From: Microbotryum violaceum
Lineage: Eukaryota
Length of the DNA: 64,000 bases
Reading direction: 5' to 3'
Assembly (NCBI GenBank): GCA_001244265.2
Contig: CDLV01000016.1
Span: 62,001-126,000 of the forward strand
Shown: one piece after another, positions 1-5,314 of the stretch
Numbering within the stretch: position 1 is the stretch's first letter
Layout: each line of letters begins with the position of its first letter
Notes under the pieces: generated by a model
Databases searched by the model: none
What the model was told of the DNA's origin: nothing
Seen by the model: only the letters and a program-made list of their open reading frames with translations
Made by a program: the position numbers and the translations under genes

Positions 1-389
1 GGTGTGGACGTTGTGTAGCTTCAATGCCTGTGAAGAGCTGTCATGGTTTTTGGGGGCTTAAGCTAGATCGCATATTAGTGGCTGTACCGTTCACCATTTT
101 CCGAATGGGGCCGATACCGTGGATCCGGGTCCCGTATTTTCCGAGGGAATCTCTCTTCGAGACTGATTCCATGGTCCTAAAGCGGAAGGCCTCGTTCGGC
201 ACAGCCAATCTGCGAGCCCGTCTGTGCAACGAGAGCCTTGCCCTTCTCATCTCGGCCGGATAGGATAGCGATGTCGATCACTTGGGTTCCGACCCCAAAT
301 TCCCCAAGCCTATTATGCGTGGCAGCTCGTTTCTCTTCTTCTTCATCATCTTCTTCACTTCGCATCCATCACTTCTCTCGCCACCCCTC

Positions 390-2379
390 ATGAAATTCCT
401 CATCCCCCTTTCCGTCCTCGCTTCGGCTCTTCAGCTCACCTCGGCAGCCCCTGCCGCAGGCGTCAAAGCCTTGAACGTCCGAGACCCTTTGGAAGGGCAG
501 GCTCGTGCTGCCTCCAAGTGCTCGAACAGTCAGTTTCTGAATCCCAAGAGTAAGTTCAAAATTTTGGCTGCTCTTCACACCAACTGCGCCAGCTTCCAGG
601 CTGACCCTCGCGTGCCGGACCCCCTTTCCAGCCAACAAGTGTCAAGATTGTTCAAAAACGTTCCCGCATGCTTCGGCCTGCAACAAGGACGGACCTTTGA
701 GGTGCAAACTCGGTAACCTAGAGGGCTGCAAATGCGAACTCGCAAAGTGCAAGATTGAGAGTGCGACCTACCTCTCGGACGATGGTAAGCTTTGAGCTCC
801 ATCTGAGTCGGTTCCTTCGTCGGCCTGCAGGCTTCAACCAGAGACTGAAGAGCCACTTTTCCTTTCTCCAGGCCGAAGGTGCTTGCGATGCAAGGACAAG
901 GGTGCGTCGGAATGCACTGCGACAAAATCGTTGGAGTGCAAGAAGGGTTACCTTCTTTCGGACAAGCGGGTCTGCGTCAAAGTTACCTGCACTCCTCCCA
1001 AAGTGTTGTCTCAAGACCGTAAGCACATTTAGTCACCCGGAGAACCACCTTCTTTTGAGCCCAAGTTGAGCTGAACTCTTCTCGCCTCTTCTTTACATTC
1101 TGGTAGAAAATGGATGCTGCTTGGATCCGAACGCTTCGGCTTGCTCCGACACCCAAGCTTCGACAGCGTGCAAGTCTGGCTACCAGCTCAAGAATAACTC
1201 CTGCAAGCTCATCGTGTGCAAGGCCCCGCTCGCAGTCGTGTCTGACGATAGTGAGTTCTCATGATCGGTTGCGAAAAGTACAACCTCCCCTGATTACACC
1301 ACGTAATGTGGGCCATGATGATCAGGTAACGGCTGCTGCTTCGACCCGCATGCGACAAAGTGCTCGGACCGAATCACCTCGACCTCGTGCGCAGTCGGGT
1401 ACAAGCTTGATCGTAACGAGTGCAAGATCGATGAGTCACGTACTTGCAAGCCTCCACTTGCTGTCTACTCTGACGATAGTAGGTCACAGGAATTTTTTCC
1501 GAGGAGACACTGTCTCGATATACCACTGACCAGTACGCCCTGGCTTAATATCTGCTATCACAGACAATGGCTGCTGCTTCGATCCCCACGCCACCAAATG
1601 CTCTGATCGCATCACGTCGACAGCATGCGCCGCTGGATACAAGCTCGACGTCAATGAATGCAAAGCCATTGTGTGCACATCCCCACAATCGGTCGTTTCC
1701 GATGACAGTGAGTGACTCTCCTACGCCCTATCGGCAGGTGTCGGTCAGGGCTGACCCAACAGGCTCAATTATCTCCATGATGATCTCGAAGACACGGGAT
1801 GCTGCTTCGATCCGCAAGCAACCAAATGTTCGACCCCATCAGTAGCAACAGCTTGCACCGATCTCTTTGACGTGGACGGAAACGTGTGCACCAAGAATGC
1901 CGTTTGCCCAGTGCCGACCTACAAGCCCAAACATGGTCAGTGTTTACAAGTGCCGTCCTCGAGGCTCCCACCCCACTTTTCAGCACAATTCAGTTTCATT
2001 TAAATATTTTCTTCCATATTCGTAGATACGGGGCCCAACTGCTGCATGGACCCTTACGCCACGTCCTGCTTCAACGACTTCAAGTCGACCGCGTGCGTGG
2101 AGGGCCGACGTTTGGGCAAAGGGGCTTGCGTGCCTCCCAAGTGTGAGGCGCCTTACGTCCAATCCCAAGACGGTACGTCAACTCTACTGGGTCAAACCCG
2201 GAGTTTTTCGAAATTGAGTTCATTCAACTGATTATGATATGTCTTCGCCGTCGGTTCGATTCTTGACAGACAGCGGATGCTGCACCGACCCGTACGCGAC
2301 CGCCTGTTCGTCTGCCTCGGTGTCGACCAAGTGCAAACGAGGCTACCGCACCTTGGGCACCAAGTGCGTCAAGAGTTGA
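390..2379 (+). CDS. Secreted cysteine-rich repeat protein (~433 aa, 9 exons), candidate effector or cell-surface protein
   Basis: Signal-peptide-like N-terminus MKFLIPLSVLASALQLTSA. Exons read by eye: 390-549, 632-784, 872-1018, 1107-1250, 1326-1478, 1564-1707, 1792-1935, 2026-2172, 2270-2379. All introns are GT-AG and phase 1. Repeated module e.g. NGCCFDPHATKCSDRITSTACAAGYKLDVNECKAIVC; ends TKCVKS*. Confidence 0.88.
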
Positions 2380-2990
2380 CGAATGGAATAGTCGCAAAGA
2401 GCAACAATGGTATAGTTGGACACCCTTGGTCATTTTGAGCGCCGACTCACTCGGAGTCGAAGCAATTCGAGCTTGATTTCGCAATTCGTGTAGCTTGATT
2501 TAATTGTAACAACCGGGCTCGCTCGCCACAAGTTTCAGAAGGGGAGAACAACCGAGAGAGAACAGCTCAGTCACAAAGTGCAACGAGATTTTCTTACGAG
2601 AGGATGCGTCTGTGATTTGAGAAAAAGGTCTCGATAGGAGCTGCGCCAAATATTTGAAGCTTAGTGACTGCCTGAAGTCTCACGCCTCCGAGTCCGAGCG
2701 CGGCGCCGCGGAGTAAGAATAGTCGGTGATGTACCCATACAGTATGCAGGGAGAGCAGAGTCTCCGGTCTTCCTGTAGGCAGACATTCTGAGTGCGGTCC
2801 ACCATCCTGGGTAAGCCCGTGGATCGCTGGAGTTTGCCCACCAGAAAGATCAGTCAGCGAATTGTAAAGGCCAATTTTGATCCGAATGGCAAATGGAATG
2901 CCGGGTCAAGCGCTCTGGTGACGCGTTGAGGGCGCTCCGCTTCCGCCCCATCGTTTGATCGTCCTCACCGCCGTCGTCTGCTGCGCTAGG

Positions 2991-4420
2991 ATGGCCTACT
3001 CTACAACATCGTGGCTCGTGCCGTATTCCGTCGTCGTGAGTAGGGAGGAGCGACGATGTGTACGCTGCAACCGCTCTGACGCCAGTGTGTTTGCCCATCG
3101 TCTTGCTCGTCTTGGTCGTCTCAGTCGATCGGACTCGTCGCTGGCCTGTACATCCTCTTTACAGGATCAGGTGAGCGGTGTACTGGGTGTCTCCCGTCTC
3201 GAGGTTCACCGACTGATCCAAGCTGTAAGCTGGCGGTGAACTGTAGGTGAACAGTTCAACCCGGGCGCGTTTCTCGAACAAACGTCGCCCTACGCCTGGG
3301 CCCTGCTCGGCATCGGATTGAACCTCGGTCTGTCGGTCGTGGGAGCAGGATGGTCAGTTTGACCCGATGCATCATATCGAGCAGTGCAACGCCGGCTGAA
3401 GCTCTTTTCCGATCGATATCGCTGGCTCCGGAATGCGCGCCACAGGGGAATCTGGATCACGGGCTCGACCATCATCGGTGCCGGAGTACGAGCACCCCGG
3501 ATCACCAGCAAGAACTTGATCTCGCAAGTGCTTTCACTCTCCGACTCGTAGCTATCGATCGCATGCTGTCGGGGGGCTGTGCAAGAGCACGACATGTCTG
3601 GATAGTCGTCATGTCCAAGCCGATGCCGACGCTCGAGCTGGCGGCGCAGATTAGTACACCAAAGCTGACACGAGGAACATTCCCCGTCCGACGATCACAA
3701 CAGAGTCATCTTCTGTGAAGTGGCAGGCGTCTATGGTAGGTCCCAGTTGCGCTCTTCTCTGTTCAGGCTCGTCGTCCAAACCGGCGGCGATTCCAAGTGT
3801 TGAACGCAGGATAGAATTTGGAACTGACTGAGCTCATTCTTTCATATAATATAGGCGTAATTGGATGCGAGTCATGCATTTCCCGCGAAACTAGCCTGCC
3901 TTCATGTTGCAAGGCGAAGCGCGTGCTGACCTCGCTCACATATCCTCCTCTTTAGCGATCGTCTTCTCCGCCAAGCTCGCTTCTTCCCCGACGCAAATAA
4001 CACTCTACACGGCTGGAAATTACTACACCGGATTTGCCTTGTTCTGGGGTGGTGTGACGATGGGCATGTGCAACCTGCTGTGTGGTATCGCCGTCGGGAT
4101 CTCGGGAAGTAACGCCGCGTTGGGTGATGCCGCCGATCCTTGTGCGTTCGCCTCGTGCACCTTTAAGAGTCAGGATGACAAGGGAGCTGAGGGTGCTAAT
4201 GAGATGATGTTTGATTGGCCTCGGTGTAGCTCTGTTCGTCAAGATCCTCGTCATCGAAGTCTTTTCGTCGATTCTGGGTTTGTTCGGTCTGATCGTCGGG
4301 CTGCTCGTCGTACGTGCATTCTCCTTGATCTTTCCCTTCATTGAACGGATTCGAACTGATGCATAGCCCATCCACACACTTGATTTTATTCAGAGCGGGA
4401 AAGCTGCCGAGTTCGTCTAA
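2991..4420 (+). CDS. VMA16: V-type ATPase proteolipid subunit c''
   Basis: Spliced translation contains [104 protein letters not shown]. It has the extra N-terminal TM helix typical of c''. Confidence 0.95.
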
Positions 4421-5314
4421 GCTCGTCGTGCTTCCGAGGAGCGAATGCTTGAGGCCGGAGGAAGATACTCAAGGGCCCATCATTGGAAATGTATGTGAAG
4501 GTGTTCTAGACGAAGGACGAAGAATGGTCTGAGCTGCTGTCTCTCGTGTAGAGAGACCGTCTTGATGGGTACCTTTCTGACGTTCTTGATTCTTGCGGTT
4601 TTTTCCTTTCTTGTGCGCCCCATGCGACGCTTCTTGTGTGATCAATATATCTCAGTCTTGTATCATCAGCAAAGCAATGAGCTCAAGGAGTGATGAGAGG
4701 GGAGGGAGAGAGCCAAAGGGCTAGCCTACCAGCATGAACAATCAAGGGGACTTGTGACGCTCCGGAACGATCTTCTCCCAAGTTCCGAACCTGAAGCGGA
4801 AATCTCTGAATTGAGCGTCCGACAGTCGGGGGCCAATGCCCTGACTCTCTCGAGATCAGCCAAAAAACACCCGAGTAAGATTTGATCGAAAAGTTGTGGA
4901 ATTTGAAACAAATGTGGGATGCTCGAGAGGAACGAGTAAAGCGGTCGGCGCCGGTCGTTTCGTTTTGCCATTTGCCGCGGCCCGGCAGGCAGAGAACCCG
5001 CACAAAAGGCAGGGGCGAGTGGAGCTCCGTGATCAACGCTCCTTTCCATCGGTTCCTGACGCGTTTGCAGCCTTGATTCTTGGCCCTGATCCTCCCACGA
5101 GACGAAATCACGAGTGTTCATACACATCCGCTCCAACTCAGAGACGGTACACACGTCCCTTGTACCCTCGAACGACTCGCGTCGCTCCTTGCTAGCACTG
5201 CGGAGTGTTCCCCCACACGGAATACGGGAATACGGAATACGGCGCTTGGCATCCCCATTGCTGCACTGCACTTGGACCTGATCCAACCCCAGTCACGCCC
5301 ACCCACCCATCATC

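Follow-up and report, generated by a model that had tools for sequence, protein, structure and literature searches.

The window (the whole stretch of DNA that was analysed, 64,000 nucleotides) carries close to its start the gene MVLG_04379, the coding sequence of which lies at positions 390–2379 on the plus strand and consists of nine exons that form a single open frame of 433 amino acids with 49 cysteine residues. All eight introns are of the GT-AG type, 75–97 nt long and in phase 1, and the seven internal exons measure, in order, 153, 147, 144, 153, 144, 144, and 147 nt; the eight phase-1 introns and the internal exons of 144, 147, or 153 nt given in the initial annotation are thus borne out by the frame and by spliced contigs, and its assignment of the internal exons to the symmetric class 1-1 holds for all seven of them. 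Annotated MVLG_04379 from Microbotryum lychnidis-dioicae has 458 residues, of which the C-terminal 433 match the predicted translation without a difference. The corresponding NCBI record starts at an in-frame ATG at position 315, which adds a 25-codon extension (315–389, plus strand) and falls within the transcript, given a contig start at 296; in M. saponariae and M. intermedium, the records begin with the ATG that corresponds to position 390. No second copy of the gene was found in its own genome. The adjoining gene (window positions 2990–4410) reads as a V-ATPase proteolipid subunit, MVLG_04378 being annotated with ATP-synt_C, and a further gene begins near 5314; neither neighbour shows a link to the repeat gene.

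Splicing was assessed from contigs of three spliced runs belonging to three studies; contigs lose rare forms, and their ends are not transcript ends. In run X13, a single spliced contig of 1546 nt (296–2529) joins all eight introns at the predicted sites. Five of the eight introns are spliced at the predicted sites in run X1, the contig of which reaches 2537, so that the transcribed span covers at minimum 296–2537 (plus strand). In run X4, from a relative 90–95 % alike, six of the eight are spliced at these sites. None of the runs found to hold the gene is on record as RNA. Run X2 was considered as a case of intron retention and rejected; it is unspliced across introns and was taken as DNA-like. 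In-frame insertions of 10–17 residues at introns 5, 6, and 8 in the records of M. saponariae and M. silenes-dioicae were likewise rejected as isoforms, being upstream-acceptor predictions that are absent from all contigs. MVLG_04379 and its splice sites are real.

All features described in the following lie on the plus strand, and every intron was placed in phase 1 by the frame together with the spliced contigs. Exon 1 (390–549) encodes a signal peptide, a short linker, and a lone cysteine that resembles the tail of a repeat; SignalP4 is positive for the 458-residue record. It is followed by intron 1 (550–631, 82 nt) and by exon 2 (632–784), a repeat of the CxxC type with one extra, non-conserved cysteine, which comparison with the orthologue identifies as a hybrid of modules 1 and 2 of M. 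intermedium. Beyond intron 2 (785–871, 87 nt), exon 3 (872–1018) holds a second CxxC-type repeat, assigned from sequence and module tree. Intron 3 (1019–1106, 88 nt) separates it from the CC-type repeats, which comprise exon 4 (1107–1250), exon 5 (1326–1478), exon 6 (1564–1707), exon 7 (1792–1935), and exon 8 (2026–2172). These were recognised from the sequence and, for exon 5 (sister to exon 6) and exon 6, also from the module tree; between them lie intron 4 (1251–1325, 75 nt), intron 5 (1479–1563, 85 nt), intron 6 (1708–1791, 84 nt, with an AAG acceptor), and intron 7 (1936–2025, 90 nt). After intron 8 (2173–2269, 97 nt), the coding part of exon 9 (2270–2379) supplies the terminal CC-type repeat with five cysteines and the stop codon. 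No membrane segment or anchor-like tail was found, the top 19-residue hydropathy past residue 30 being 0.94, and the mature protein is basic (pI 8.4). Secretion, as proposed in the initial annotation, agrees with the positive SignalP4 call in the available supplement of PMC4469406.

Exons 2–9 thus encode eight homologous six-cysteine repeats, C-x-x-C replacing CC in exons 2 and 3; the earlier description of one module per exon was right, although its count of six has to be raised to eight. The cysteine spacing in exons 4–8 is 0,7,8,10,4–7,12–14. Since exon 1 contributes one cysteine and exon 9 five, the six-cysteine set is not closed inside an exon. Of all pairs, exons 5 and 6 come closest (77 % protein identity; 74 % over 103 ungapped nucleotides), and their identity over whole exons (63 %) is no higher than that of exons 4 and 6 (64 %) or 6 and 7 (65 %), so that their designation as near-duplicates at the DNA level was too strong. 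Identity between introns (42–57 %) is at the level of shuffled sequence (47±3.5 %). The eight phase-1 introns all occupy the same position of the repeat and are therefore not independent events. They amount to one copied position, which tandem exon duplication demands, and thus give no separate evidence for shuffling or skipping; the initial annotation had read the symmetric exons as a signature of shuffling, but tandem exon duplication alone yields this symmetry.

The number of modules is eight in three species and nine in M. intermedium. MVLG_04379 protein is 92–98 % identical across three host-specific species. A tree was built from 45 modules over 50 columns, from which the unsplit first row of M. 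intermedium and two long rows of M. saponariae had been dropped. Exons 3, 5, 7, and 8 pair in it with their M. intermedium counterparts at starred support and exons 6 and 9 at weaker support, and exons 5 and 6 together form a starred clade, which dates the duplication of exons 5 and 6 to before the split from M. intermedium. The first half of exon 2 shares 14 of 23 residues with module 1 of M. intermedium (6 of 23 with module 2), and its second half 18 of 27 with module 2 (6 of 27 with module 1); as judged by this protein comparison, the loss of a module therefore broke within the coding repeat and not at a phase-1 intron. A labile module number was accordingly not encountered across the four species (8, 8, 8, and 9): the modules pair one-to-one with those of M. 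intermedium, the sole difference being this mid-exon deletion, and the repeat array is old and nearly fixed. The 85-residue protein P0007 (M. intermedium BQ2448_7288), numbered beside the orthologue, repeats the last two modules of the latter; it is a partial tandem duplicate that is absent from the genome studied here.

A growth mechanism can be proposed in which the ancestral repeat already had a phase-1 intron within the loop of its last hairpin. Copying of the stretch between two such introns would add one repeat-length unit in frame, and the array may have been built in this manner. Exon modules of class 1-1 are known from the extracellular mosaic proteins of animals (EGF, sushi, kringle). 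MVLG_04379 resembles these in having symmetric phase-1 exons, each one repeat length long, in a secreted disulfide-rich protein, but differs from them in that a single kind of module is repeated and, apparently, in that exon and folding unit are offset by half a hairpin.

Eleven paralogous loci were modelled from searches of the same genome and 15 fetched stretches. Four models are residue-identical to annotated proteins, namely MVLG_05514 (in the modelled part), 05533, 05534, and 05538; the others were built here, two of them with GC donors. Among the paralogue introns, 43 of 49 are in phase 1; the remaining six are in phase 2 and share a single position within the first repeat. Excluded from this count were phase-0 introns that some genes have in their N-terminal, non-repeat part, the frameshifted junction of L024, and the loci L026, L029, L031–L033, and L035. 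Class 1-1 accounts for 25 of the 37 internal exons. Some boundary introns are absent, as in L023 (exons of 209–218 nt) and L027. With A for CxxC and B for CC repeats, the orders AABBBBBB, AABAB, and AAAB occur. The module profile recovers 05538 and the clusters of 05514, 05533, and 05534.

A nine-member family of cysteine-rich secreted proteins that includes MVLG_05513–05515, 05533, 05534, and 05538 was described by Perlin et al. in 2015 (PMC4469406); in the part of that paper available here, the family is treated without domain, repeat, or exon analysis, and MVLG_04379 is not named with it. Four of the six named members (05514, 05533, 05534, and 05538) lie at loci with the repeat and intron layout of MVLG_04379. 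These members end in a C-terminal domain with four cysteines and have fewer CC repeats, whereas MVLG_04379 is without that domain. The domain spans about 100 residues (L021:1396–1686; last exons of L022–L025 and L030), is attached through a phase-1 intron, gave no match in Pfam or the PDB, and is a candidate for a ligand-binding head on a repeat stalk.

Several further observations were made on the family. An unnamed N-terminal domain of about 110 residues is present in L023–L025, and three repeats in L027 (2150–2540) are followed by a Thr/Pro-rich, mucin-like end. In MVLG_05533 (L021:4002–5870; G000:C3 about 1973500–1975370, minus strand), an in-frame stop in the last exon truncates the C-terminal domain; the gene shows the strongest induction by starvation of all members seen (222 on water agar), and its orthologues in other species are full length. 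Frameshifts or stops also occur in the same assembly in L026 (2300–3700), gene a of L023, L024, and L029, L026 being a decayed array of CC repeats that resembles M. saponariae P0005; such lesions would reflect either birth-and-death turnover or assembly errors. The two halves of M. intermedium P0062 map 13 kb apart on opposite strands of C4, to L028 (about 374 kb, plus) and L030 (about 387 kb, minus), and the counterpart gene seems to have been split by an inversion.

Among the alternatives to growth by duplication within the gene, the exchange of repeats and end domains between paralogues by way of phase-1 introns, on the pattern of the mosaic proteins of animals, fares best, and we regard it as possible but doubtful. 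It would account for the differing repeat orders, for N- and C-terminal domains that are present in some members and absent from others, for the phase-1 junction of the C-terminal domain, and for the terminal CC repeats of six paralogues, which form a starred clade nested among CC repeats of the MVLG_04379 type. Against it, many forks of the 50-column tree are open, orders such as AABAB fit block duplication inside a gene, and the one datable change is a deletion in mid-repeat; moreover, the first repeat is interrupted by the six phase-2 introns, and not every boundary has its intron. All named matches with the layout of MVLG_04379 belong to one Microbotryum family, for which the module tree is poorly resolved.

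The fold of the repeat was approached by Pfam, profile searches, PDB sequence searches, Foldseek, fold comparison, and ESM Atlas models. Pfam returned nothing above cut-off for single exons, the whole protein, the orthologue, the paralogues, or the relatives P0062, P0074, P0075, and P0076. Furin-like, Furin-like_2, GF_recep_IV, and VSP gave no hit at E 0.1 on P0001 or P0002 and none on any of eight further family proteins, and the TNFR family none at E 0.1 (protein) or E 1 (single exons); the UniRef label TNFR-Cys of the record was therefore set aside as not reproduced by Pfam. CFEM was not listed by Pfam, cEGF reached 16 bits against a cut-off of 26.6, and granulin and metallothionein gave E 0.5 and 0.47, respectively. 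The module profile, a search suggested by the initial annotation, was run against 1.84 billion representatives and retrieved 70 proteins at E 0.001, many of them loose cysteine-rich matches. Within this set, the motif CC-x-D-P-x-A is found in Microbotryum records and in one unnamed protein of 1754 residues. Named relatives that bear the C-x-x-C form are present in Rhodosporidiobolus and another Microbotryomycete. P0050 (1754 residues) begins with a long stretch rich in Ala and Ser and has no fewer than 11 repeats of the CC type, which places the CC form outside the named Microbotryum records as well.

The link to furin-like repeats runs through the spacing of the cysteines and through bridging proteins. 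Profile match P0048, which has the six-cysteine form, matches R-spondin-2 at E 3e-8 and has Ala at both missing cysteines; with those two cysteines left out, the gaps of R-spondin-2 are 2,7,8,10,3,12, as compared with 0,7,8,10,4–7,12–14 in MVLG_04379. In this register, Ala is conserved at one lost cysteine position and Ser/Thr (also Leu) at the other. P0048 and P0063 match both the module profile and R-spondin, and relatives retrieved with this profile have scores for VSP and Furin-like_2 that mostly stay under the cut-off. With a full-length model (pLDDT 50), the top four of 48,161 fold matches were R-spondin chains (Z 3.4–4.1, rmsd 4–8), although a Z of 4.1 with an rmsd of 6 falls in the range of chance fold matches and the structure models are weak (pLDDT 50 and 69). 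The Atlas model of the orthologue aligned to PCSK5/6 and VSP clusters with TM values of 0.34–0.51 (0.42–0.51 for the PCSK clusters), one row reaching the bar for GF_recep_IV. Full-length Foldseek ranked EGF-type chains first, none of them significant (none at E 0.001), and the fold comparison of a single module, as proposed in the initial annotation, was run on a single-exon model and matched nothing. PDB sequence searches returned no R-spondin with the broader profiles A3, A4, and A5 and one with A1 only at E about 4; ESM feature searches all stayed under 0.9 and were treated as leads only.

The repeat register was set by the cysteine spacing of R-spondin, and the disulfide pairing of R-spondin structures would carry over to the present repeat. 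Read in this way, the unit is most likely a reduced furin-like repeat with three disulfides, one of four having been lost. Each intron would cut the repeat inside its last hairpin, so that exon and folding unit are offset; the first cysteine of each exon would close the last hairpin of the preceding repeat, and one disulfide per repeat would span an intron. This offset is supported by the single cysteine of exon 1, the five of exon 9, and the five in the last repeat exon of the paralogues, as found in all eight models that have this repeat on an exon of its own. With the same register in every exon, adding or removing one of them would still leave complete cysteine pairs; the cysteine totals are 48 in M. 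silenes-dioicae and 54 in M. intermedium. The furin-like domain has been described as three hairpins with four disulfides, the limits in R-spondin-1 being 39–94 and 97–142 (PMC3905715, as available). With the furin-like proteins (R-spondin, PCSK5/6, and the EGF-receptor family; Pfam Furin-like_2 and GF_recep_IV), the repeat shares the cysteine spacing and the G-Y/F-x-L hairpin, and it would share the arrangement as a tandem ladder, with which the weak top fold matches agree, but it has six cysteines instead of eight, the C-x-x-C between repeats is shortened to CC in six of eight, and no Pfam hit is obtained. It thus reads as a unit that works like a furin-like repeat without being filed as a member. 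Giardia VSPs and the CxxC-repeat surface proteins of ciliates (Pfam VSP) resemble it in that Atlas neighbours carry VSP; in contrast to these, the present family has no membrane anchor, no sign of antigenic switching, and about a dozen loci.

We consider it unlikely that the six-cysteine unit is a new fold in its own right, or an EGF-like or a metal-binding one, closed within each exon and unrelated to furin-like repeats. Such a unit would fit the absence of any significant sequence or fold match for the MVLG_04379 protein and the adjacent CC, which is unlike R-spondin, but it is at odds with the match in spacing, with the bridge that P0048 and P0063 form to R-spondin, and with the odd cysteine counts of the first and last exons, and the signal peptide favours disulfides over metal. 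The module called possibly unnamed in the initial annotation carries no Pfam name above cut-off, as claimed, but is most likely a reduced form of a known repeat.

Expression values were taken from the available supplements of two studies. Supplement 15 of PMC4469406 lists MVLG_04379 at 63.6 on water agar, at 30.5 on rich medium, and at 0.29 in flowers late in infection, and the log2 fold values of the gene for late infection against the in vitro conditions are 7.7 and 6.5 lower. The level in starved yeast cells thus exceeds that in late-infected flowers about 200-fold. Supplement 2 of PMC5919739 gives 13.7–16.7 in mated cells and 0–6.7 in 12 in-planta samples, and in five of five floral conditions the gene is 2.2–5.4 (log2 fold) lower than in mated cells. 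The paralogues 05513, 05533, and 05534 are also highest on water agar, and 05514 and 05515 are absent from that table (PMC4469406).

The proposed role as an infection effector acting on the host plant is quite improbable on these data. The protein is secreted and cysteine-rich and belongs to a lineage-restricted family in a biotroph, and the in-planta data are confined to late and floral infection; against such a role stand the strong decrease in all five in-planta conditions sampled and in late infection, the 92–98 % identity across three host-specific species, and the peak of the three paralogues on water agar. Expression in the haploid and mating yeast phase, with the gene switched off in flowers, would rather place the product on yeast cells. 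It may well form, on haploid and mating yeast cells, an elongated ladder of hairpins that is stiffened by disulfides and belongs to the cell coat or the extracellular matrix, acting in adhesion, scaffolding, or multivalent binding and being off in flowers; this function is read from expression and anatomy, and we hold it at slightly less than even confidence.

The combinatorial isoforms envisaged in the initial annotation, that is, regulated in-frame skipping of class 1-1 exons to give proteins that differ in the number and order of repeats, are very unlikely. The internal exons are indeed removable in frame, as had been stated, all 128 of 128 exon combinations being open, and the shared register would presumably keep cysteine pairing intact across new junctions. 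However, none of the 12 listed joints in the three spliced runs skips an exon, as judged from contigs, which omit rare forms. Skipping of one exon would need an intron of 307–334 nt, as compared with the actual 75–97 nt; skipped exons make up 3 % of alternative splicing events in fungi, for which intron definition has been proposed (PMC3925392, as available). Symmetry, moreover, is needed for exon duplication anyway. That a basidiomycete family independently evolved animal-style class 1-1 modules, with a permuted furin-like exon exchanged between paralogues and regulated skipping in MVLG_04379, to give secreted yeast-phase coat proteins of varying length and binding order, is equally improbable.

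The reading preferred here, which we consider probable, is that MVLG_04379 is spliced constitutively, encodes a soluble secreted protein made up of eight reduced furin-like repeats in tandem, and has grown by exon duplication; it is not read as a combinatorial effector. MVLG_04379 was not found by name in published full text, nor in the supplements of PMC5967549 (one file) and PMC6831777 (six files); a literature search that misses most subscription journals brought up no publication that treats this repeat or this arrangement of exons in fungi, and the available part of PMC4172882 added nothing on the repeat. The repeat type and exon layout are thus apparently undescribed, and they combine known elements, namely furin-like repeats in reduced form and arrays that lengthen as symmetric exons are duplicated. 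A new mechanism of splicing or diversification is not shown on present evidence. The gene offers a clean example, from a fungus, of a family of secreted proteins whose repeats multiplied through duplication of symmetric exons, and in which the intron seemingly cuts the folding unit and yet preserves the disulfide register. It also supplies a fold hypothesis for a family that was published without a known domain, and its expression directs attention to the yeast and mating phase of the fungus, which has been little studied, and away from the infection of flowers.
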